IMG/VR virus record: IMGVR_UViG_3300018036_000002
Length of the DNA stretch: 34,699 bases
Reading direction: 5' to 3' (one strand)
Origin: a virus
Shown: positions 3,087 through 9,240 of the stretch, piece by piece
Position numbering within the stretch: position 1 is the first letter of the stretch
How the letters are laid out: every line of letters starts with the position of its first letter
Program-made: the position numbers and the translations under genes
The notes under the pieces: generated by a model
Seen by the model: only the letters and a program-made list of their open reading frames with translations
Told to the model about the DNA's origin: nothing
Databases searched by the model: none

Positions 3087-4021
3087 TATTCGATGCTCCA
3101 TATTGATCGTGCTTCTTGTAAATATCCCTCTGGAGCGTTCCATCCTAGGTTATCCCAATCGGGATAGACCAAAGATAGCAACTCGTGAGGGGTTCTTGCG
3201 GCCTTCAACATATTCTCAGTGATACGATTCATCAGCCTTATCTGCTTCACAACTTCCTCCAGATACTCTGGCTTCAATTGATCGCAGTTATCTTGGTTTA
3301 AGATTCTGTAGTCATCTTTGTTTGCGTATAGTAGCCACACCGGCTTGCGTCCATTGATCTCCCATCCACCGGCGACCTGATAGACGTTCGCAATATCGAA
3401 GCGACCACTCAGATCTTTGGGTAAATTGTTATTAGCGAACCCACTCTTAGTCCGTGAGTTGCGGGTAGACCATTTAGTTTTGAGGTCACCTACTCCTGCA
3501 TAGTCAGGCAGGTTCTTGTGCCCAAGCTCATTCCCAGGCAGTGCCCCGTATAACTCTGTCTCTCCGAAGATCTCCGAGCCAGCCATCACTTCCCGCAAAC
3601 CAGCTAGTGCGCTCTGTATCACGCCCTCTAGCTCAGTCTCATACTGCGTCCACTTTGCGGCGTCGATGCCGTCATCCCAATCGCGTGGGATGTACTTCAT
3701 GTACTGTTGATAAGTAGACGCCATAACTTCTGCGGGGTCTTTACGTTCAAGCAGGATTGCATCACATGCAGACTGAACCAGCCTGCCGCATAGCATGTTG
3801 GCATTGTCTGAACCATTGTATCCTTGATCCAGCCGGTAGATAACTTCCCATGCCTGTTCTTGTTGCACGTTATCAGAGTCCGGATTCTTGATGACCTCCC
3901 AGGCGCCCCTTACTTTAGGACGGACCACGCATTTATCGAAGAACACTTTCGCTTGGTCGCGGTTCTTCATGTTGGAATGCCAGAAATAATTGTGGCGTCT
4001 CGCCCAATCAGGGATGATCAT
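3086..4021 (-). CDS. PD-(D/E)XK-type nuclease-like protein, the probable exonuclease partner of the annealing protein.
   Basis: LPDYAGVGDLKTK fits the PD...(D/E)xK motif, with upstream acidic residues (GETE). It is translationally coupled to the SSAP gene, the classic exo + SSAP arrangement. Confidence 0.5.
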   Translation of the reverse strand: MIIPDWARRHNYFWHSNMKNRDQAKVFFDKCVVRPKVRGAWEVIKNPDSDNVQQEQAWEVIYRLDQGYNGSDNANMLCGRLVQSACDAILLERKDPAEVMASTYQQYMKYIPRDWDDGIDAAKWTQYETELEGVIQSALAGLREVMAGSEIFGETELYGALPGNELGHKNLPDYAGVGDLKTKWSTRNSRTKSGFANNNLPKDLSGRFDIANVYQVAGGWEINGRKPVWLLYANKDDYRILNQDNCDQLKPEYLEEVVKQIRLMNRITENMLKAARTPHELLSLVYPDWDNLGWNAPEGYLQEARSIWSIE

Positions 4022-4410
4022 GACTGAACCCCCGTACCATGAAGCTCTTCAATTAGCTTTCTAACATATGCTTTGGACTTCATCCGCCTTGGTTTATTAG
4101 CTGACGATGCGCTACCTGCAGATACCTTGCGCACGTTTCTGTTGTGTCGCTCTGTCGGTTGCACCTGCACCGGAGCCAGCACTTCTTGGTAAAAGTTTTG
4201 GAGCGCGAGCCGCATTCTATTGTTGCGAATCCTGTACAACTTACGGACCTTAGCTTCAGTCAAGCTGTAGCGTTTAGCAACTGACGCAATGGGTTCGCCT
4301 CTGTCAACTAAATCACAGATACGACCGATAGCCCCTAGGATATCAGAGACTACCCGATCAACGTGGTGGTCCTCCGTGGCGTGTCTGATTAAATCTAAAT
4401 ACTGATGCAT
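4018..4410 (-). CDS. Putative HTH DNA-binding protein.
   Basis: AGGTG SD lies 4 nt upstream of the ATG. The segment PIASVAKRYSLTEAKVRKLYRIRN looks like a sigma-region-4/HTH unit, and the C-terminal half is basic. Confidence 0.5.
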   Translation of the reverse strand: MHQYLDLIRHATEDHHVDRVVSDILGAIGRICDLVDRGEPIASVAKRYSLTEAKVRKLYRIRNNRMRLALQNFYQEVLAPVQVQPTERHNRNVRKVSAGSASSANKPRRMKSKAYVRKLIEELHGTGVQS

Positions 4411-4418
4411 ATTTCACC

Positions 4419-4670
4419 TCACAAATTGCTAATGATTTCTTTTTTTACATGCACGATAACGCTCGTGTACCACCCAGGCGCTCGGTCATAAATGATCTCT
4501 ATGTGCCTGGGGTATTTCTCTAAGGCAGTATCGAAAAACTTGGCGAAACTATGTGACCCCCCGTAATACACGAAGGAATGTTTGATCTCAGGTACGGTAG
4601 TGTACGCGCCGAAGTTTGCGTTAATTGCCGCAACCATCGCTCGCATTTGTACACGAAAACTTCCCTGCAT
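4419..4670 (-). CDS. Hypothetical protein (83 aa), first gene of leftward early operon 1.
   Basis: ORF next to the divergent promoter region. The SD is weak. Confidence 0.5.
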   Translation of the reverse strand: MQGSFRVQMRAMVAAINANFGAYTTVPEIKHSFVYYGGSHSFAKFFDTALEKYPRHIEIIYDRAPGWYTSVIVHVKKEIISNL

Positions 4671-4732
4671 AATTTCAAAATCCCACGCTTACATATAGTG
4701 TCTTAGAAAAATACTTGGTCAGCGTATTCTTG

Positions 4733-4761
4733 TTGACGTATCATGTCAACCATCGATAAAA
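4733..4761 (+). promoter_or_regulatory. Sigma70-like rightward early promoter with an overlapping palindromic operator.
   Basis: TTGACG (4733-4738), a 17-nt spacer, then ATAAAA (4756-4761). The inverted repeat TTGAC-gtatcat-GTCAA spans 4733-4749. The 10-mer TGTTGACGTA (4731-4740) recurs on the minus strand at 9240-9231. Confidence 0.55.
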
Positions 4762-4801
4762 GTCTGATTCATCGTGACGCAGACTGAAACAGGATGGGAC
4801 A

Positions 4802-5017
4802 ATGACACTAGATCAATGGCGCAAAAAACGAGGGTATAGCTACCGGGCATTAGCTCAAATGATAGGGGCTTCTCATGCTTCTGTGGTTCGCAGATGGTGT
4901 ATGGACTTGGATGATGATGACTTCATGATTCCGAAAACGAAGTACATGCTGGTCATTTTGGAGGTCACAGCGGGCGAGGTACAGCCAAACGATTTCTACA
5001 TTCGGAGGTCGAAGTGA
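4802..5017 (+). CDS. Cro/XRE-like HTH regulator.
   Basis: YSYRALAQMIGASHASVVRRW is a typical helix-turn-helix. It is a small first gene divergent from an early operon. Confidence 0.6.
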   Translation: MTLDQWRKKRGYSYRALAQMIGASHASVVRRWCMDLDDDDFMIPKTKYMLVILEVTAGEVQPNDFYIRRSK

Positions 5018-5415
5018 GCGGTGTCAATGGCAGAAACAAGGGGGCCGCGTTTGAACGGCAGATTGCGGGCATGTTGCGTGATCAATTGGGCATCGACTGC
5101 AAGCGCAATTTGATGCAGACGGCAGAAGGTGGTCACGATTTGATTGGTTTGCCGGGGTTCGCGATCGAGTGCAAGCGATACGCTGTGATCAGTCACGGAA
5201 AATTAGACAAGTTCTGGGCGCAATGTGTCTCACAGGCACAGAGAGTCGATCTAACGCCATGTTTGATTGTGAAAGGTGATAGACAGCCGGTCAGAGTTTT
5301 CATCCCTTGGAGCGGCTTAGGTTGGGACGCTTATCAGTGGGACAATTTTAATTGTGCGGCTGAAATTTCGTTTGAATTATTTTGCGCAATCGTTCGCGAA
5401 GGGTTGACCAAATAA
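5014..5415 (+). CDS. Hjc-like PD-(D/E)XK Holliday junction resolvase/endonuclease.
   Basis: GTG start with a GGAGG SD 5 nt upstream. The sequence KGAAFERQIAGMLRDQLG ... GHDLIG ... FAIECK matches the archaeal-type Hjc pattern (KGxxFE ... D ... ExK). Confidence 0.55.
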   Translation: MSGVNGRNKGAAFERQIAGMLRDQLGIDCKRNLMQTAEGGHDLIGLPGFAIECKRYAVISHGKLDKFWAQCVSQAQRVDLTPCLIVKGDRQPVRVFIPWSGLGWDAYQWDNFNCAAEISFELFCAIVREGLTK

Positions 5416-5452
5416 TCTAAAAGCATTACGCTCCGCTTGCGGTCCCGGAGGG

Positions 5453-5523
5453 GTACGTGTTCAGAACACGTACGTGTTAAGCATGTACGTGTTACTAAAC
5501 ACTTTCTTATTCAAAACACTTTC
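5453..5523. repeat. Iteron-like cluster: GTACGTGTT x3 and AAACACTTTC x2, giving six GTGTT/AACAC cores in 71 nt.
   Basis: GTACGTGTT occurs at 5453, 5470 and 5485. AAACACTTTC occurs at 5497 and 5514. The perfect palindrome ACGTGTTC-A-GAACACGT spans 5455-5471. No ORF overlaps. Confidence 0.8.
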
Positions 5524-5571
5524 AATGCACGTGCTATGCACTGTCTCAAATTCTGTGGATAACTTTCAGGC

Positions 5572-5596
5572 AAAAAAAAGCCCGGCGAACCGGGCT
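5572..5596 (-). terminator. Rho-independent terminator ending the ribozyme-punctuated leftward operon.
   Basis: The minus strand reads AGCCCGG-ttcg-CCGGGCT followed by TTTTTTTT. On the plus strand the same hairpin lacks a U tract. Confidence 0.8.
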
Positions 5597-5617
5597 GAAG
5601 ACACACAGGGGAGTGTG

Positions 5618-5800
5618 TTAGATAGTCAGTGAGTGACGATACACGATCGCCATCACTGTTCCAAAGTGTTTTTGATTGGGTCTAACCGCACGATACCCCT
5701 GATGAGTGCGGCTAATGTGCATCACGCTCAGATGATTGCGGAGCATGATTGATTTTGCATCCGCTAGCGCATCTAGCGGATTGAGTTTGAATCCAAACAT
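5618..5800 (-). CDS. Possible small ORF (60 aa) at the 3' end of the operon. Weak call.
   Basis: AAGGA lies 6 nt upstream of the ATG. It overlaps the upstream gene by 28 nt and lacks the conserved ribozyme/leader unit. Confidence 0.3.
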   Translation of the reverse strand: MFGFKLNPLDALADAKSIMLRNHLSVMHISRTHQGYRAVRPNQKHFGTVMAIVYRHSLTI

Positions 5801-6180
5801 GGATTGTCCTTGAGCCTGTATTGGGCAAATCGTTTGCCGTTATGTTTAATCATGGTCGAGGTGATATTGTATCCCCTTCCTCTCAGATCATAAATGCGAG
5901 CAGACAATCGCATACAGCCAATTTCCATCGTGGATTCCCACTGAGTGATTGAACCATTGCGTTTCATGAATGCCAAAATAAGGTCGCATTGAGCGCCCTT
6001 GGTTTGCTCCTCGGTTGAGTCGAAGTCTTCAGACGGATCGATTGTACGAACGATCGCTGATAGTGCGGCAGGGCCGCTCTCCATTGTGCGTTCTGCGAAA
6101 TCGTCTGCCGCATTTTTGCTTTCAGCATAAAAAGTGACAGTCCCGCCGTCAGAATATTCAACGTCGATTGCGTGCTTCAT
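5773..6180 (-). CDS. Protein with a C-terminal winged-helix DNA-binding domain (phage HTH_39-like).
   Basis: CDLILAFMKRNGSITQWESTMEIGCMRLSARIYDLRGRGYNI matches the common phage wHTH pattern (...GI.RLSARI.DLR..G..I). It is preceded by the conserved leader GGGGAAAUACAAU-AUG. Confidence 0.65.
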   Translation of the reverse strand: MKHAIDVEYSDGGTVTFYAESKNAADDFAERTMESGPAALSAIVRTIDPSEDFDSTEEQTKGAQCDLILAFMKRNGSITQWESTMEIGCMRLSARIYDLRGRGYNITSTMIKHNGKRFAQYRLKDNPCLDSNSIR

Positions 6181-6200
6181 ATTGTATTTCCCCTTGATGT

Positions 6201-6262
6201 GCGACCTGTCTTATCAATACGGGTAGGTCACATCCCGTAGACCGGGCGAACCCGGTTTCGAC
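6201..6262 (-). ncRNA. Hammerhead ribozyme A (type II, U3:A8 core variant).
   Basis: RNA: GUC GAAA CCGGG-UUCG-CCCGG UC|UACGGG-AUGUGACCUA-CCCGUA UUGAUAA GAC AGGUCGC. Stem II is GAC/GUC. The tail AGGUCGC pairs with loop I GUGACCU. Predicted cleavage is after C at 6240. The G of the upstream UAG stop is part of stem II. Confidence 0.8.
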
Positions 6263-6630
6263 TATGCAAGATGGTTCAAGTGGTGACGCTTGAGCAACCC
6301 AAACAAATATTTTGTCGAGCTTTCTAGCTCATCACCAAACACTCTGAACTCTGTGTGCAGTACGCACTCTTCCATGAACATTGGGACAAAGTCACAGTCG
6401 AAGGGTTCATCATAATCAAGCTCATCCTTGACCATGTTGTAGACCTGTTCGCATGACACAGCCAACTCTGAGATCTTGTCTCTTGTATGAGCCATGCCGT
6501 GCTGTCTTCTGAACGCCTTCAAATCGTGATCGTCGTCCAATTCTTGGAAGTATTCATTGATGACCTGCGCTGTGAACAGCAGTTGGTCAGCCTGAATTCC
6601 GCATACTTTTTCATTAAGAATATTTTCCAT
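6262..6630 (-). CDS. Acidic hypothetical protein (122 aa, MENILNEKVCG...).
   Basis: The track ORF is trimmed to ATG 6630, which follows the conserved leader. The extra 10 upstream codons read through ribozyme B. Confidence 0.65.
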   Translation of the reverse strand: MENILNEKVCGIQADQLLFTAQVINEYFQELDDDHDLKAFRRQHGMAHTRDKISELAVSCEQVYNMVKDELDYDEPFDCDFVPMFMEECVLHTEFRVFGDELESSTKYLFGLLKRHHLNHLA

Positions 6631-6648
6631 TGTATTTCCCCTATGTGA

Positions 6649-6715
6649 TTGCCCTGACATCGTCAGATCGGGTAAGGCAAGGTTCCCGATGACGCACCCG
6701 GAGGTGCGTTTCGTC
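6649..6715 (-). ncRNA. Hammerhead ribozyme B (type II, extra U after A9, flipped stem II).
   Basis: RNA: GAC GAAA CGCACC-UCCG-GGUGCG UC|AUCGGG-AACCUUGCCUUA-CCCGAU CUGACGA U GUC AGGGCAA. Stem II is GUC/GAC, compensatory relative to the other copies. The tail AGGGCAA pairs with loop I UUGCCUU. Cleavage is after C at 6691. Confidence 0.75.
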
Positions 6716-7176
6716 TATGCAAAAAGCTCATCAAATTCAGCAACCTGAATTGATAGAACCGATGTGGCTTTGTTGTCGAGACCAATGATGACCTCGATCG
6801 CACGGCCTTGGTTGCTATGCCAGACAGCGGTCAGTCCGGCATCTTCAAGATCATGCACCAGTTGCTGTGCATGCATGTGCATCTGCGCTTCCCGGCGGTC
6901 ACCTTTCGGATACCACGGGAAATTAACGTAAATCTGAAAGCCGTTGGTCTCTAGATCATTCGCCAGCACACTGTCGCTCCAGTCCGCATGCGATTCAGTC
7001 CAGAAATAGCATGGTTGGTTAAGCTCCTCCATGCGGGCTTTGAACTCCTTGAGCATAGATTTGTTGAGACCTACGCGGGCAGAGACTTTACGCTTGGGCC
7101 TGCTGTCACGCATGACACTTTTGAAAGTTTCATACTGAGCCGCCTTGATACGCTGAATGATTTTCATGTGATTCAT
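6715..7176 (-). CDS. Hypothetical protein (153 aa, MNHMKIIQRIKAAQ...).
   Basis: Trimmed to ATG 7176 after the conserved leader. The longer track ORF (to 7377) reads through ribozyme C and into the next gene. Confidence 0.65.
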   Translation of the reverse strand: MNHMKIIQRIKAAQYETFKSVMRDSRPKRKVSARVGLNKSMLKEFKARMEELNQPCYFWTESHADWSDSVLANDLETNGFQIYVNFPWYPKGDRREAQMHMHAQQLVHDLEDAGLTAVWHSNQGRAIEVIIGLDNKATSVLSIQVAEFDELFA

Positions 7177-7195
7177 AATGCTTCCCCTGTGTGTG

Positions 7196-7261
7196 TCATC
7201 CTGTCTAATCATGCCGGGTAGGATGAGGTTCCCGACGACACACCCGAAGGTGTGTTTCGAC
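7196..7261 (-). ncRNA. Hammerhead ribozyme C (type II, A3:U8 core variant).
   Basis: RNA: GUC GAAA CACACC-UUCG-GGUGUG UC|GUCGGG-AACCUCAUCCUA-CCCGGC AUGAUUA GAC AGGAUGA. There is a perfect 7-bp pseudoknot (AGGAUGA/UCAUCCU). Cleavage is after C at 7237. Activity of the A3:U8 core is uncertain. Confidence 0.7.
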
Positions 7262-7501
7262 TCAAAGGCAAATGCGTATACGTTCGATGGTGTGCTTGCC
7301 GCGTACCAGCCGGTGATCGACTTTGACGCGACGGCCAACGAAGGCATGCCAGTCATGCGCTTGCACCCAATTGGCATTGCAGGGTGTGTAAAAGCACTCT
7401 GCTGTGCCGGGCTTGTTACCGATCAATAGCATCCAACGTGGGTTGCCATTACGTGTGTTCAGTTCGCGTGATACTTGCAGTACGTTTGCATGTGTTTCCA
7501 T
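7262..7501 (-). CDS. Hypothetical protein (79 aa, METHANVLQVSRELN...).
   Basis: Trimmed to ATG 7501 after the conserved leader GGGGAAAUAUC-AUG. Confidence 0.6.
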   Translation of the reverse strand: METHANVLQVSRELNTRNGNPRWMLLIGNKPGTAECFYTPCNANWVQAHDWHAFVGRRVKVDHRLVRGKHTIERIRICL

Positions 7502-7520
7502 GATATTTCCCCTGTATGTG

Positions 7521-7584
7521 CCACCCTGTCTTATCAATACAGGTAGGGTGAGATTCCTGTAGACGCCCCGGAGGGCGTTTCGAC
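7521..7584 (-). ncRNA. Hammerhead ribozyme D (type II, U3:A8 core variant).
   Basis: RNA: GUC GAAA CGCCC-UCCG-GGGCG UC|UACAGG-AAUCUCACCCUA-CCUGUA UUGAUAA GAC AGGGUGG. The tail AGGGUGG pairs with loop I UCACCCU. Cleavage is after C at 7562. Confidence 0.8.
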
Positions 7585-7931
7585 TATGCCATTTCAACCG
7601 TTTCTTCTGTCACGTACTTGCATGTGTATGTGACCTCATCGCCTTTGAATCTATCGAACACCTTGAAGTGCTTAGCGACAAATCGAAACTCGATATCTTT
7701 ACGGCCTCGATACGCATGTTCATTTTGAAACTGCCAGTTGACAGCTTTGAGATACCCAACGTCGAAATCATCGTCTGGACTCGGTTCAGCGTCGAATGTT
7801 CCACCGGGATGTGACACCCGTTGAACTTCAAGCATCGGTATCCATTGTGATGTCTTCCATTCAGACCACTTGCGGCCCTCTTTTTTGCGGTATTGACATG
7901 CATATGAATTGGCTTGGATTAGATTTTCCAT
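7584..7931 (-). CDS. Hypothetical protein (115 aa, MENLIQANSYACQYRKK...).
   Basis: Trimmed to ATG 7931 after the conserved leader. The upstream extension reads through ribozyme E. Confidence 0.65.
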   Translation of the reverse strand: MENLIQANSYACQYRKKEGRKWSEWKTSQWIPMLEVQRVSHPGGTFDAEPSPDDDFDVGYLKAVNWQFQNEHAYRGRKDIEFRFVAKHFKVFDRFKGDEVTYTCKYVTEETVEMA

Positions 7932-7950
7932 TGTATTTCCCCTGTGTTGA

Positions 7951-8013
7951 GATACCTGTCTCATCAGTGCCGGGAGGTAAACCCCGGTCAGACGGGCCGA
8001 AGCCCGTTTCGAC
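7951..8013 (-). ncRNA. Hammerhead ribozyme E (type II, canonical core).
   Basis: RNA: GUC GAAA CGGGC-UUCG-GCCCG UC|UG(A)CCGGG-GUUUACCU-CCCGGCA CUGAUGA GAC AGGUAUC. The tail AGGUA pairs with loop I UACCU. Cleavage is after C at 7991. Confidence 0.85.
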
Positions 8014-8274
8014 TTATGCAGTTGTGATGCCCTCAGCAATGTAAATTCGGTTGAGGGTAAGCACTAGATCATGCTTGGTATCAGCGCGGGCGATGACTTT
8101 GGTGAAGCCGTCCGCATTGCGTATCGATGTGTCTTTGGCAAGCCACCGACCTCCAACTTTTAAAACGGAGATGTGTTCGTTGCCTTTGACAACCCATTCT
8201 GCTGAGTCTGTTCCCATGCCGTTTCCAAGCCATTCTGTAGACTTAGTTTTGGTCAGCTTGATGTAGTTTTTCAT
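8014..8274 (-). CDS. Hypothetical protein (86 aa, MKNYIKLTKTKSTEW...).
   Basis: Trimmed to ATG 8274 after the conserved leader GGGGAAUACAAA-AUG. Confidence 0.6.
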   Translation of the reverse strand: MKNYIKLTKTKSTEWLGNGMGTDSAEWVVKGNEHISVLKVGGRWLAKDTSIRNADGFTKVIARADTKHDLVLTLNRIYIAEGITTA

Positions 8275-8292
8275 TTTGTATTCCCCTGTGTT

Positions 8293-8354
8293 TGAGATGT
8301 CTTCATCAGACCGTGGTCTCTCACACCACGATGACGGGCAAGGCCCGTTTCGAC
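8293..8354 (-). ncRNA. Hammerhead ribozyme F (type II, extra A after A9).
   Basis: RNA: GUC GAAA CGGGC-CUU-GCCCG UC|AUCGUGG-UGUGAGAGA-CCACGGU CUGAUGA A GAC A UCUCA. The tail UCUCA pairs with loop I UGAGA. Cleavage is after C at 8333. Confidence 0.75.
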
Positions 8355-8441
8355 TTAGTACCAATCGGTTGACCGTAGGACCGCCCATGCAAGGATGGTG
8401 ATGCCCCAAAGGATCAAGAAGGTTTCTTCTGCGCCAGTCAT
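8355..8441 (-). CDS. Micro-ORF: 28-aa hydrophobic peptide (MTGAEETFLILWGITILAWAVLRSTDWY).
   Basis: Found by reading the sequence. The ATG overlaps the upstream micro-ORF stop (TGATG), and the TAA stop abuts ribozyme F. Confidence 0.45.
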   Translation of the reverse strand: MTGAEETFLILWGITILAWAVLRSTDWY

Positions 8442-8515
8442 CAGATCACCTCCCAGAACTTGAGAGTGCCAAATGCGAAAGCCGCGCTAAATGAAAGAAT
8501 GATTAATAGTTCCAT
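8441..8515 (-). CDS. Micro-ORF: 24-aa hydrophobic peptide (MELLIILSFSAAFAFGTLKFWEVI).
   Basis: It is preceded by the same conserved leader as the larger ORFs (ACACAGGGGAAUACAC-AUG). It occupies a ribozyme-delimited slot between copies G and F. Confidence 0.5.
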   Translation of the reverse strand: MELLIILSFSAAFAFGTLKFWEVI

Positions 8516-8532
8516 GTGTATTCCCCTGTGTG

Positions 8533-8595
8533 TTGCCCTGTCTCATCAGTGTGGGTAGGGCGTGATCCCACAGACCGCCCGGAGGCGGTTTCGAC
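8533..8595 (-). ncRNA. Hammerhead ribozyme G (type II, canonical core).
   Basis: RNA: GUC GAAA CCGCC-UCCG-GGCGG UC|UGUGGG-AUCACGCCCUA-CCCACA CUGAUGA GAC AGGGCAA. The tail AGGGC pairs with loop I GCCCU. Cleavage is after C at 8573. Confidence 0.85.
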
Positions 8596-8958
8596 TTATG
8601 CGCTTTCAATCAGCTTTCTGATTTTCTTGATGACTTTGCGTTCTGCTTCAGCCATTTTTTTGTTGCCGTACGCGATGGCTTCTTGAGGTGTTTTAAATGA
8701 TTTGGCGCGAGGTGCTTGTCCGAATCTTTCACCGTTCCGTTCATTTCTCAGAAACACTGTAAAATCCCTTGGAACGAAATCTTCAGGTCTGACCCAACAC
8801 CGCTTTGACCATTCCGCATTCTCGTCTTTGGTGTAGTCAAACTGCCAAACCAAAAAACTGAATCCGATGACTCTGCCTTGAGCATCTCGCAATCCAAATT
8901 CTTTGCTTTCTTCAGCGACAATTTTTTCTTCACGTGAACATGTAATTAAGTTAGTCAT
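8596..8958 (-). CDS. Hypothetical protein (120 aa), first cistron of the ribozyme-punctuated operon.
   Basis: ATG 8958 follows the conserved leader ACACAGGGGAAUACACA-AUG. Confidence 0.65.
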   Translation of the reverse strand: MTNLITCSREEKIVAEESKEFGLRDAQGRVIGFSFLVWQFDYTKDENAEWSKRCWVRPEDFVPRDFTVFLRNERNGERFGQAPRAKSFKTPQEAIAYGNKKMAEAERKVIKKIRKLIESA

Positions 8959-8966
8959 TGTGTATT

Positions 8967-9031
8967 CCCCTGTGTGTTTCGCGGATACTGCCGCTCATCA
9001 GTCAGGCTGGTTGCCTGAGACACTAGGGGGG
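8967..9031 (-). ncRNA. Hammerhead ribozyme H (type III topology, canonical core). Its stem III contains the SD of the first cistron.
   Basis: RNA: CCCCCCU-A-GUGUC|UCAGGC-AACCA-GCCUGA CUGAUGA GCGG-CAGUAU-CCGC GAAA CAC-AC-AGGGG. Stems I and II are closed hairpins. Stem III is open (GUGU/ACAC plus CCCCU/AGGGG). Cleavage is after C at 9019. Confidence 0.8.
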
Positions 9032-9207
9032 AAAGTTAACTGGTTGGTGCGTGATGCGAATGCTTGAGTGAGACCTTGCTGAATCAGCGGAACCCCGAAG
9101 GCGCTGAAACCATCCGGAAACCAGAAGCACCGTCAAGGCGCAGACCAGATAACCAGTAAGCAGGTTTTTAAAGAGCTTTGAACCGGGGCCGCCGATCCGT
9201 TGAGAAC

Positions 9208-9240
9208 ATTATAATCATAGTGTGACGCATTACGTCAACA
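9208..9240 (-). promoter_or_regulatory. Candidate leftward early promoter plus palindromic operator driving the ribozyme operon.
   Basis: The minus strand reads TGTTGACGTAatgcgtcacactatgatTATAAT. The -35 TTGACG is at 9238-9233 and TATAAT is at 9213-9208, with a long 19-nt spacer. The inverted repeat TGACG-taatg-CGTCA overlaps the -35. Confidence 0.5.

Follow-up and report, generated by a model that had tools for sequence, protein, structure and literature searches.

Perreault et al. (PLoS Comput Biol, 2011) described clusters of hammerhead ribozymes that flank genes in prophages, in Agrobacterium tumefaciens (flanking ardA), Azorhizobium caulinodans and Clostridium scindens (PMC3088659). In that study, polycistronic fragments of three clustered prophage arrays cleaved in vitro at all sites, and long phage transcripts were hypothesized to be processed into gene-length mRNAs. 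In Desulfovibrio vulgaris, type II hammerheads cleave in vivo, as detected by cyPhyRNA-seq; like the copies described below they belong to RF02276 and lie near hypothetical and phage-like genes, but they occupy three separate loci and form no operon-delimiting array (PMC8782182). The glmS ribozyme is likewise located in a bacterial mRNA and, by its self-cleavage, determines what becomes of the downstream message (PMC6765202). Unlike our array, it has another fold and requires a metabolite; just one copy is present, in a 5' UTR, and its effect is to destabilize the mRNA that carries it. In the podophage T7, host polymerase makes an early polycistronic mRNA that RNase III, a host enzyme, then cleaves at long double-stranded hairpins in the intercistronic regions, which leaves stabilizing 3' hairpins. 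Our array would similarly yield discrete mRNAs by intercistronic cuts, but with the cutting activity residing in the RNA itself, with 5'-OH and cyclic phosphate ends and with no host factor. Engineered insulators of the RiboJ type place a hammerhead before the ribosome-binding site, where it strips variable upstream RNA so that the mRNA begins with a defined 5' hairpin and expression is context-independent, and aptazyme switches free a masked Shine-Dalgarno sequence. Unlike these engineered devices, the array is natural, and an insulating role is one that we infer.

We analyzed a window of 34,699 nucleotides (IMG/VR record IMGVR_UViG_3300018036_000002), a complete marine-type podophage genome of ~34.6 kb. 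Among small genes on its minus strand, between positions 6201 and 9031, lie eight hammerheads, of which seven are type II and one is type III. The array is probably a hammerhead-delimited cassette operon, which we consider the best explanation of the observations below. It shares with the clusters of Perreault et al. co-oriented hammerheads flanking single genes or short blocks of varying identity in phage DNA, a type II pseudoknot between loop I and the 3' tail, and U3-A8 covariation. It differs from them in that its eight copies lie within a complete podophage genome and each cistron of at least 79 aa has one in front of it.

Identification of eight hammerhead motifs

A preliminary description of this DNA had placed eight hammerheads, seven of type II and one of type III, on the minus strand and had predicted a cut after the GUC of each. 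The Rfam models recognize all eight, but only one, at 8291-8355, exceeds its gathering score (37 bits for Hammerhead_II, RF02276; 48.5 bits for Hammerhead_3), and seven lie below. An independent helix-and-core descriptor for types I, II and III, run over the 34.7-kb window, returned exactly these eight elements, all on the minus strand, with the same eight cut positions (Table 1), and gave no match when the window was reversed or complemented. No additional copy emerged from a search of the window with a covariance model trained on the seven type II copies. The Rfam models, the descriptor with its clean controls and the strong covariation together support seven type II and one type III hammerhead in mRNA sense. 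All eight lie at the coordinates given earlier, and direct reading bears out the stem sequences, the UUCG, UCCG and CUU loops, the flip of GAC/GUC that marks copy B and, for copies A, B and D, the overlap of position 11.3 with a UAG stop codon.

The type III element comprises stem I (UCAGGC/GCCUGA), a CUGAUGA box and stem II (GCGG/CCGC) followed by GAAA. Its stem III (GUGU/ACAC) is extended by CCCC(CC)/GGGG(AA), which covers the Shine-Dalgarno sequence at 8965-8971, and the RNAfold minimum-energy structure reproduces the hammerhead including this extension. The element is kept in relatives with one compensated stem II pair; the first Shine-Dalgarno sequence is paired with the stem III extension in about half of the related lineages, a likeness to aptazyme switches. 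For the type II copies, RNAfold gave no consistent shift in Shine-Dalgarno accessibility upon cleavage.

Covariation, core variants and predicted product ends

The seven type II copies were aligned manually with the structure as guide, a procedure that favors high pair counts; paired cells make up 96.4% of this alignment, whereas shuffles give 71.9% and slid controls 31-43%. Double, compensatory changes occur at 17 of 25 base pairs, and pairing is kept, in line with the earlier proposal of a selected RNA structure rather than a simple DNA repeat. The pseudoknot between loop I and the 3' tail shows double changes at six of its seven pairs. It is formed by the last 7-8 nt of each type II interval of the preliminary description, where it was not named. 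Also absent from that description is an extra base between A9 and G10.1 in copies B and F. In copies A to D, every ribozyme substitution between the window and its relative L128 falls in loops.

Not all type II copies have the CUGAUGA box ascribed to them: it reads UUGAUAA in A and D and AUGAUUA in C, with compensated changes of the C3-G8 core pair (CG in four copies, UA in two, AU in one). The A3-U8 pair of copy C is kept in L128 and L127 and is the only convincing one among 183 surveyed type II copies; our literature search found no reported activity for such a core. The stem II pair GUC/GAC recurs in six of the seven copies in the window and in 149 of the 183.

The predicted downstream products start directly at a 6-7-bp hairpin with the pseudoknot and have no unpaired 5' base, and the upstream products end in a GC-rich tetraloop hairpin. 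Cleavage could serve decay or timing control rather than stabilization, the 5'-OH product being preferred by a 5' exonuclease such as RNase J, as in glmS, so that early or accessory transcripts would be shorter-lived or slow variants would grade expression along the operon. We regard this as unlikely. The end chemistry is that of glmS (PMC6765202), rates could differ between copies with core variants (U3-A8 in two, A3-U8 in one) or the insertion after A9 (in two), the core variants are kept in relatives, and Perreault et al. raise regulated cleavage of phage variants (PMC3088659). However, both product ends are structured and expected to block exonucleases, a destabilizing element before each of eight retained genes is hard to rationalize, and no ligand-binding or switch element is visible. 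Whether hairpin 5'-OH ends stabilize or destabilize an mRNA depends on the RNases of the host.

Organization of the operon

The array forms a 3.65-kb unit of small ORFan genes that begins at a putative sigma-70-like promoter and ends at an intrinsic terminator. We take it to be one transcription unit because a promoter-like site lies upstream, a strong terminator lies downstream and all ORFs and ribozymes are co-oriented. The putative promoter is kept with few changes in L128 (82% identity over 9239-9206). Our consensus scan found no better promoter-like site within the operon and none between cistrons; a lone weak internal site lies inside the 122-aa gene.

Table 1. Features of the hammerhead array, listed in the direction of transcription
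Feature	Position	Strand	Evidence	Predicted cut after (descriptor)	Details
Putative sigma-70-like promoter	9211-9238	-	consensus scan; weak match, 9/12		TTGACG, 16 nt, GATTAT
5' leader, released by predicted type III cut	9041-9205	-	95.8% identity to L128		adjoining coding sequence 73.8%
Type III hammerhead	8967-9031	-	Hammerhead_3 at 8971-9026, 28.4 bits; descriptor	C9019	
Cistron 1, 120 aa, ORFan	8596-8958	-	ORF behind conserved leader		
Type II hammerhead G	8533-8595	-	RF02276 at 8532-8596, 35.0 bits; descriptor; structural alignment	C8573	pseudoknot GCCCU/AGGGC
Cassette, two overlapping putative mini-ORFs	8355-8515	-	translation		24 aa MELLIILSFSAAFAFGTLKFWEVI; 28 aa MTGAEETFLILWGITILAWAVLRSTDWY
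Type II hammerhead F	8292-8354	-	RF02276 at 8291-8355, 38.7 bits, above gathering; descriptor	C8333	additional A between A9 and G10.1; pseudoknot UGAGA/UCUCA
Cistron, 86 aa, ORFan	8014-8274	-	cassette common to distant relatives		
Type II hammerhead E	7951-8013	-	RF02276 at 7950-8014, 35.9 bits; descriptor	C7991	bulged A in stem I; pseudoknot UACCU/AGGUA
Cistron, 115 aa, ORFan	7584-7931	-			with hammerhead E, unit missing from L128
Type II hammerhead D	7521-7584	-	RF02276 at 7520-7585, 23.8 bits; descriptor	C7562	box UUGAUAA (U3-A8); 100% identity in L128
Cistron, 79 aa	7262-7501	-	weak phrog_20597 match, E = 9e-5		unknown function
Type II hammerhead C	7196-7261	-	RF02276 at 7195-7262, 23.9 bits; descriptor	C7237	box AUGAUUA (A3-U8, rare)
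Cistron, 153 aa, ORFan	6715-7176	-			
Type II hammerhead B	6649-6715	-	RF02276 at 6648-6716, 36.8 bits; descriptor	C6691	stem II flipped GAC/GUC; extra U after A9; N7 = C; seven-pair pseudoknot UUGCCUU/AGGGCAA
Cistron, 122 aa, acidic ORFan	6262-6630	-			
Type II hammerhead A	6201-6262	-	RF02276 at 6200-6263, 27.9 bits, scanned in isolation; descriptor	C6240	box UUGAUAA (U3-A8); eight-pair pseudoknot UGUGACCU/AGGUCGCA
Last cistron, 135 aa	5773-6180	-	Pfam HTH_39, E = 9e-16		C-terminal winged helix-turn-helix
Intrinsic terminator	5571-5596	-	terminator scan; 96.7% identity in L128		AGCCCGG-TTCG-CCGGGCT + T run

The 5' leader is not conserved in more distant relatives and has no Rfam match, and the product of cistron 1 matches nothing in Pfam, PHROG or the PDB. 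A ribozyme had been proposed for every intercistronic gap. This holds for each cistron of at least 79 aa, but the overlapping mini-ORFs (8515-8441 and 8441-8355) share one cassette, meet at TGATG and have no intervening ribozyme, the second stop codon abutting hammerhead F; nor does a ribozyme precede the 60-aa ORF at 5800-5618, if this is a genuine gene. Among the seven upstream ORFs, five share the ending GCA-UAA/UAG.

Cassette turnover in related phages

L128 lacks exactly two units, the mini-ORF cassette and the 115-aa cistron with hammerhead E, and the breakpoints coincide with hammerhead unit starts. The identity of the window to L128 changes abruptly at the edges of ribozymes, from 97% to 68-74%: cistron 1 is 73.8% identical at the nucleotide level between flanks that are 96% identical, and the last cistron is 68% identical behind a hammerhead at 97.6%. 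The 86-aa protein shares 67-71% amino acid identity with its counterparts in six relatives (L122, L123, L097 and L124-126); its gene is found in at least four different neighbor contexts, with hammerheads adjoining every time. In relatives, homologous cassettes are flanked by type I (L125/L126) or type III hammerheads (L122/L123), and the order of type III first, then type II, recurs throughout the phage group.

We infer that recombination caused this turnover, and the mosaic identity could have arisen by recombination anywhere in the conserved flanks rather than in ribozyme DNA specifically. The repeats might alternatively act mainly at the DNA level, as homologous joints for cassette exchange with a role like that of integron attC sites or phage boundary sequences; the ribozyme fold would then be secondary or vestigial. 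The coincidence of cassette indels and identity jumps with hammerhead units would fit, as would the mutual identity of about 75-85% between array copies over 60-100 nt and the shared GCA-UAA/UAG ends, by which the repeated unit extends into coding sequence. We nevertheless consider a mainly DNA-level role improbable: helix sequences vary with pairing kept and the core is invariant or compensated, which shows that selection acts on the RNA rather than on DNA identity; such compensatory variation reduces DNA homology among copies; and the flanking of relatives' cassettes by other topologies suggests that cleavage is needed, not a particular DNA sequence.

Type II hammerheads in IMG/VR

Among 120 IMG/VR loci retrieved with one subfamily pattern, 59 contain two or more hammerheads and three contain 7-9. 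The rarity implied for the array by the preliminary description is not supported, given these 7-9-copy arrays in other contigs, the recurrence of mixed topology and the phage clusters published in 2011. The geometry of the array holds generally in this subfamily: in a non-redundant set of 183 type II copies from IMG/VR, an ORF end precedes 155, and in 117 of these the stop codon abuts stem II or overlaps it by one base (20% at random positions). The next start codon mostly lies 18-30 nt downstream, the leader and Shine-Dalgarno sequence are uniform within each surveyed array and specific to it, and ArdA is among the hammerhead-preceded genes.

Discussion

We propose that host RNA polymerase would start near 9211-9238, as the promoter-like sequence suggests, and transcribe ~3.65 kb to the terminator. 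Each ribozyme would fold on emerging and cut after its own GUC, with stems I and II of the type II copies held together by the 5-8-bp pseudoknot. The leading type III cut would remove a leader of ~190 nt. Each type II copy lies directly against the stop codon before it. The mRNA upstream of its cut would finish with the tetraloop hairpin of stem III and a 2',3'-cyclic phosphate, and the next would open without an unpaired base, with the stem I hairpin and pseudoknot followed by the uniform leader ACACAGGGGAA(A)UAC, which contains the Shine-Dalgarno sequence, and the AUG. Because of the type II topology, processing would give monocistronic mRNAs with a hairpin at both ends. The predicted output is seven mRNAs, six of them monocistronic, with standardized structured ends and equal ribosome-binding context. 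Conversion of polycistronic RNA into monocistronic mRNAs is a supported prediction, and the same reading has been given to the published clusters (PMC3088659).

An RtcB-type ligase, or reversal of the hammerhead reaction, might also re-join the products into circular or spliced phage mRNAs; RtcB uses 5'-OH and 2',3'-cyclic phosphate ends such as those predicted here, and the common GUC/GAC stem II could let the 3' half of one copy pair with the 5' half of another. This is very improbable, as a 3-bp stem II is weak for trans assembly, no sequence feature specifically favors ligation, and Perreault et al. report having sought spliced or circular products of such clusters and detected none (PMC3088659).

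The array is a clean new example of a kind of system already known. The geometry of stop codon, ribozyme, pseudoknot and Shine-Dalgarno sequence across the family, the gain, loss and mosaicism of ribozyme-bounded cassettes in close relatives, the rare conserved A3-U8 core and, in about half of related lineages, the pairing of the first Shine-Dalgarno sequence with the extended stem III of a leading type III copy may be new details; the 2011 text makes no mention of stop-codon abutment, a uniform leader, an A3-U8 core or cassette turnover at ribozyme borders. In a hammerhead-delimited cassette operon, each small accessory gene would be expressed independently of its neighbors. Recombination within the ribozyme-plus-leader module would add, remove or swap cassettes with expression undisturbed, since the same module frames every cassette.

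Eight hammerheads in one phage operon

A preliminary description, made from the sequence alone, had placed eight hammerhead motifs on the minus strand of the window between 9031 and 6201, and direct reading confirmed their coordinates. We compared them with the models of the Rfam hammerhead clan (CL00010), in which the gathering score is 37 bits for type II (RF02276) and 48.5 bits for type III (RF00008). All eight motifs were matched, but just one of them reaches its gathering score; three type II copies lie immediately below it (35.0-36.8 bits), three score 23.8-27.9 bits, and the type III copy scores 28.4 bits. The lowest type II scores belong to the copies with core covariants (A, C and D). 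Since one copy alone passes the curated threshold, we wrote an independent descriptor. It demands a box with a C3-G8, U3-A8 or A3-U8 pair, a GAAA, an A15.1-U16.1 pair, a base other than G at position 17 and all three helices, and was run for each of the three topologies. Scanning the 34.7 kb window returned exactly eight sites, every one on the minus strand, at the cut sites originally assigned. The topologies agreed as well, RF02276 matching seven sites and the type III model one, with the descriptor concurring. The reversed or complemented window, used as control, gave zero matches, and no further copies were found in the window by the descriptor or by a covariance model trained on the seven type II copies. 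Weak Rfam matches at 5572-5639 (toxic sRNA, anti-hemB, RyhB) were rejected as the terminator hairpin only. The eight hammerheads lie inside 2.8 kb, in mRNA sense throughout, each between a stop codon and the following start codon.

Hammerhead copies and other features of the window
Feature	Coordinates	Covariance-model match	Strand	Cut site	Basis
Type III copy	8967-9031	8971-9026	minus	9019	type III model, 28.4 bits (gathering score 48.5)
Copy G	8533-8595	8532-8596	minus	8573	RF02276, 35.0 bits
Copy F	8292-8354	8291-8355	minus	8333	RF02276, 38.7 bits (above gathering score 37)
Copy E	7951-8013	7950-8014	minus	7991	RF02276, 35.9 bits
Copy D	7521-7584	7520-7585	minus	7562	RF02276, 23.8 bits
Copy C	7196-7261	7195-7262	minus	7237	RF02276, 23.9 bits
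Copy B	6649-6715	6648-6716	minus	6691	RF02276, 36.8 bits
Copy A	6201-6262	6200-6263	minus	6240	RF02276, 27.9 bits (stretch scanned alone)
Sigma-70-like promoter (predicted)	9238-9211		minus		consensus scan
Intrinsic terminator, strong (predicted)	5596-5579		minus		terminator scan
GCA-stop ends	6263-6268, 6716-6721, 7585-7590, 8014-8019, 8596-8601		minus		
5' leader	9041-9205		minus		
37-aa TTG-start ORF	9136-9023		minus		
Mini-ORF cassette (24 + 28 aa)	8355-8515		minus		
60-aa ORF (doubtful)	5618-5800		minus		
Imperfect palindrome	5449-5522				
123-bp direct repeat	1-123 and 34577-34699				

Fold and core of the type II copies

We dissected the seven type II copies manually and padded the pieces so that they share 101 alignment columns, fitting the alignment to the structure by hand. 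In this hand-fitted alignment 96.4% of the cells are paired, compared with 71.9% in column shuffles, and none of 500 shuffles reached the observed value; sliding the partners by 1-3 columns lowered the fraction to 31-43%. The covariation score, again for the hand-fitted alignment, is 0.669 versus 0.172 in shuffles (0/500 reach it) and 0.05-0.14 in the slid controls, with both-sided changes in 17 of the 25 pairs. Pairing is complete (100%) in stems I, II and III of all seven copies. In each of them, the stretch of 7-8 nt that follows stem II also pairs with loop I as a pseudoknot of 5-8 bp (e.g. UGUGACCU/AGGUCGCA, UCAUCCU/AGGAUGA and UGAGA/UCUCA in copies A, C and F, respectively), which covaries in six of its seven pairs and has 87.8% of its cells paired. 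This contact between loop I and the 3' tail, which aligns stems I and II, is the published tertiary contact of type II hammerheads, as described in the available text of Perreault 2011 (PMC3088659). Descriptor scan, Rfam matches and covariation together establish the motifs as hammerheads, and the compensatory changes in the helices support the earlier view of a selected RNA structure rather than a simple DNA repeat.

GAAA, A15.1-U16.1 and GUC are unchanged in all eight copies. A CUGAUGA box had been ascribed to all seven type II copies, but direct reading gives UUGAUAA in copies A and D and AUGAUUA in copy C; CUGANGA is retained in five of the eight hammerheads, N7 being C in copy B and U in the other four. 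The deviating boxes replace the core pair C3-G8 with compensation, by U3-A8 in copies A and D and by A3-U8 in copy C. The former is a natural variant reported in the available text of PMC3088659. For A3-U8 we found no report in the literature searched, and copy C is the sole convincing case among 183 type II copies surveyed among the IMG/VR matches listed; it is kept in L128, a close relative of the window, and in the further contig L127. Copies B and F carry one additional base between A9 and G10.1, and an insertion after A9 is present in 22 of the 183 copies surveyed among the matches listed.

The operon and its genome

The cistrons encode, in order, 120, 24+28, 86, 115, 79, 153, 122 and 135 aa. 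An ATG comes after each copy of the conserved leader, ACA(C/U)AGGGGAA(A)UA. The last cistron, a winged helix of the HTH_39 family (E = 9e-16), is the only one with a Pfam domain. The 79-aa protein weakly matches a PHROG with no assigned function, and the other cassette proteins have no relative in Pfam, PHROG or PDB. Our operon scan found no promoter-like sites between cistrons; the single internal promoter-like site, a weak one, lies within the 122-aa gene. The claim that a hammerhead occupies each intercistronic gap has to be corrected slightly on two points: two mini-ORFs share one cassette, and a 60-aa ORF comes without a ribozyme. The mini-ORFs are hydrophobic, overlap at a TGATG junction and form a single hammerhead-bounded cassette; they could encode small membrane peptides. 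The 60-aa ORF is doubtful: it shares 28 nt with the end of the last cistron and has no preceding hammerhead, no leader and no family match. Five of the seven ORFs preceding type II copies end in a GCA (Ala) codon plus UAA or UAG, so that the repeated unit extends one codon into coding sequence; the other arrays inspected do not share this ending.

The flanking genes encode a RusA-like resolvase and an Sf6-like small terminase, the latter on the opposite strand; a large terminase with 57% aa identity to HTVC010P-type pelagiphages follows. Further genes encode a T7-type portal, capsid, tail and internal virion proteins, a tail fibre and a lysozyme, and the array thus sits in a phage genome. An exact 123-bp direct repeat at both ends of the window marks either a terminally repeated, complete genome of ~34.6 kb or an overlap left by circular assembly. 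A relative contig of 34,196 bp is collinear with the window but permuted. No phage RNA polymerase was found among the window ORFs scanned, and the host polymerase therefore presumably transcribes the operon. The interval from the operon terminator to the resolvase gene contains an imperfect palindrome with many ACGTG/GTACGTG repeats and weak microRNA-like Rfam matches on both strands, which could be an operator or origin-like element. A blastn search with the operon against 50,697 phage records gave no match, and a host search with the type III probe found one uncultured alphaproteobacterial MAG only, with no genes in common.

Comparison with other hammerhead arrays

We searched IMG/VR with the subfamily pattern GTCGAAAC..GTC..TGATGAGACAGG and obtained at least 120 loci. 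On the loci among the matches listed, our own scanner found 228 hammerheads, versus 5 in control sequences; 59 of the loci listed contain two or more. The matches listed include 18 non-redundant arrays with at least three hammerheads and four with at least seven, namely the window and loci L037, L016 and L070, for which Rfam gives 8, 6 and 6 type II matches, respectively, at E <= 0.01. The eight-copy array is thus at the upper end of the distribution and not unique. L037 (IMGVR_UViG_3300000217_000001) has nine hammerheads once scanner-only copies are added, one of type III and eight of type II within 3.4 kb (3341-6707); the array of this unrelated viral contig exceeds that of the window in size, and its leader, again uniform, is of a distinct AAAGGAA type.

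The window array is a further example of known phage hammerhead clusters and represents no new system. As in the clusters described in the available text of Perreault 2011, several co-oriented hammerheads flank single genes or short gene blocks in phage DNA, and the genes between them vary in identity among related elements (PMC3088659). The same text reports in vitro cleavage at every site for ~2 kb fragments of three prophage arrays, and it proposed in 2011 that long phage transcripts are processed to gene-length mRNAs (PMC3088659). A 2019 review restates this idea and calls the roles 'largely elusive' (PMC6765202). In Desulfovibrio vulgaris, type II hammerheads close to phage-like genes cleave in vivo (PMC8782182).

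We surveyed the geometry of 183 non-redundant type II copies among the matches listed, scoring ORFs of at least 30 codons that end within 15 nt. Such an ORF precedes 155 of the 183, and in 117 of those the stop codon either abuts stem II (41) or is a UAG overlapping it by one base (76); at random positions, abutment or overlap occurs in 20%. The available text of Perreault 2011 makes no mention of stop codons (PMC3088659). In the copies surveyed among the matches listed, the start codon of the next gene mostly lies 18-30 nt past stem II. Leader and Shine-Dalgarno are uniform within an array and specific to it: ACACAGGGGAA in the window, AAUGGAGA in L016, ACGAAAGGGAAG in L070 and ACAGGAGG in a further locus, L007. 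The ORFs immediately 3' of type II copies (n=122 among the matches listed) have a median length of 91 aa, and about one-tenth of them have a Pfam match, including ArdA (2), DUF932 (2), DUF2958, Bro-N, NinX, phi29-type SSB and HTH domains; matches in PHROGs extend this list to anti-restriction and anti-repressor families. This content fits small accessory or early genes, and ArdA echoes the ardA case in the available text of Perreault 2011 (PMC3088659).

Cassette turnover between relatives

The array of the close relative IMGVR_UViG_3300025617_000062 (L121/L128) comprises five type II hammerheads besides one of type III. Compared with it, the window holds two extra units, hammerhead E with the 115-aa gene and the mini-ORF cassette with a hammerhead, and the breakpoints fall at the starts of hammerhead units. 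Copy G and the single hammerhead at the first junction of L128 show compensatory differences in the pseudoknot and in stems I and III. Ribozyme-plus-leader units are 96-100% identical between the two genomes, three genes 97%, the first gene 74% and the last 68%. We dropped the argument that ribozymes are better conserved than genes, because the central cassettes are equally conserved (97%). Every substitution within copies A-D falls in a loop, and neither the A3-U8 nor the U3-A8 cores have changed. In more distant relatives, homologues of the 86-aa gene (67-71% aa identity) have other neighbours and always adjacent hammerheads; contigs L123 and L097 have this gene alone in common with the window. 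The breakpoints suggest that the module DNA may serve as a recombination joint.

In two further contigs a type I hammerhead follows the 86-aa homologue (L125 2948-3006, L126 1436-1494), and then come tightly packed ribozyme-free genes. Equivalent positions can therefore apparently be occupied by hammerheads of different topology.

The leading type III copy

Probing with the type III copy retrieved 16 metagenome contigs, and each one with enough downstream sequence has type III first, followed by at least two type II copies; the first cassette is 243-668 nt long among 12 related operons. In the 18 non-redundant arrays of at least three among the matches listed, type III accounts for 0 of 44 internal copies and stands first in three. 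A strict rule (type III first, type II internal, type I last) was rejected: contigs L122 and L123 have a second type III between cistrons, and L125 and L126 a type I. Several arrays backing the rule are related to one another.

The type III copy has a 6-bp stem I, CUGAUGA, a 4-bp stem II and GAAA; its stem III consists of GUGU/ACAC, an internal loop and a CCCC(CC)/GGGG(AA) extension. The RNAfold minimum-energy structure of the region comprises stems I, II and III with the extension, which is predicted to pair with the first Shine-Dalgarno. This pairing covaries in ~6 of 12 lineages (CCCC/GGGG, CCUC/GAGG, CUCA/UGAG, CCUCUC/GAGGGG, CUC/GAG) and is absent from the remainder. Cleavage is predicted to raise Shine-Dalgarno accessibility from 0.24 to 0.44. 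The predicted duplex between the two fragments is quite stable (-14.3 kcal/mol), making release after the cut uncertain, and we treat masking of the first Shine-Dalgarno as a lead only. Similar masking is not claimed for uncleaved type II copies, as RNAfold accessibilities shift inconsistently (0.36 to 0.56, 0.61 to 0.49 and 0.69 to 0.71 in three examples).

The 5' leader, which the type III cut would release, is 95.8% identical in L128, where the adjoining gene is 73.8% identical; it has no Rfam match and could be a functional RNA or regulatory leader. The UAG stop of a 37-aa TTG-start ORF lies directly against type III stem III.

Possible function of the array

The reading we favour is co-transcriptional self-cleavage, by which the ~3.65 kb transcript would yield seven mRNAs, all but one of them monocistronic, besides a leader that is discarded. 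Hammerhead cleavage depends on Mg2+, falls 3' of position 17 and leaves 2',3'-cyclic phosphate and 5'-OH ends. Because of the type II topology, an upstream mRNA would close with the stem III tetraloop hairpin, ~22 nt past its stop codon, and carry the cyclic phosphate, and the downstream mRNA would begin with stem I and the pseudoknot, without an unpaired base, followed by the common Shine-Dalgarno leader. Given the general properties of 3' exonucleases and of RNases E and J, such structured ends would resist 5'-end-dependent and 3'-exonucleolytic decay. By analogy with engineered ribozyme insulators, the uniform module may also insulate translation of each gene from its neighbours. Processing into single-gene mRNAs, the mechanism put forward in the preliminary description, is the accepted hypothesis for such clusters. 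The opposite outcome, in which cleavage acts as a decay signal as in glmS, seems unlikely to us. We give still less credence to repeats acting mainly at the DNA level, which is contradicted by the compensatory changes in the helices and by other hammerhead topologies beside homologous genes. Re-ligation of fragments into circular or spliced RNAs is the least credible alternative, as Perreault et al. sought such products and detected none, according to the available text (PMC3088659).

Beyond transcript processing, we tentatively consider a joint reading that is possible, if rather doubtful, in which the module is an expression adaptor for exchangeable cassettes, a DNA swap joint and, at its head, a type III switch. 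Stop codon, type II hammerhead, pseudoknot and uniform Shine-Dalgarno leader would form a natural plug-and-play unit for the exchangeable cassettes of hypervariable early or counter-defence phage regions. At the RNA level the cut would insulate a newly acquired gene from its neighbours; at the DNA level cassettes would be swapped at the shared module. The type III copy that heads the array would, in this lineage, additionally work as a switch, its cleavage exposing the first Shine-Dalgarno.

The operon is an unusually tidy natural test case, with one promoter, one terminator and eight ribozymes, an own ribozyme for each gene of at least 79 aa, natural core variants, and close relatives differing by whole cassettes. 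If synthesised, the operon could serve to decide between stabilisation, insulation and timing of expression as effects of the cuts, and ribozyme-plus-leader modules might provide compact, host-independent parts in operon building. The value of the array lies in being a compact, complete and variant-rich example. Family-wide geometry and cassette turnover yield concrete testable predictions, and geometry together with cassette mosaicism sharpens a question open for fifteen years. If true, the joint reading of adaptor, swap joint and switch would supply the long-missing biological rationale for abundant self-cleaving ribozymes in phage DNA.
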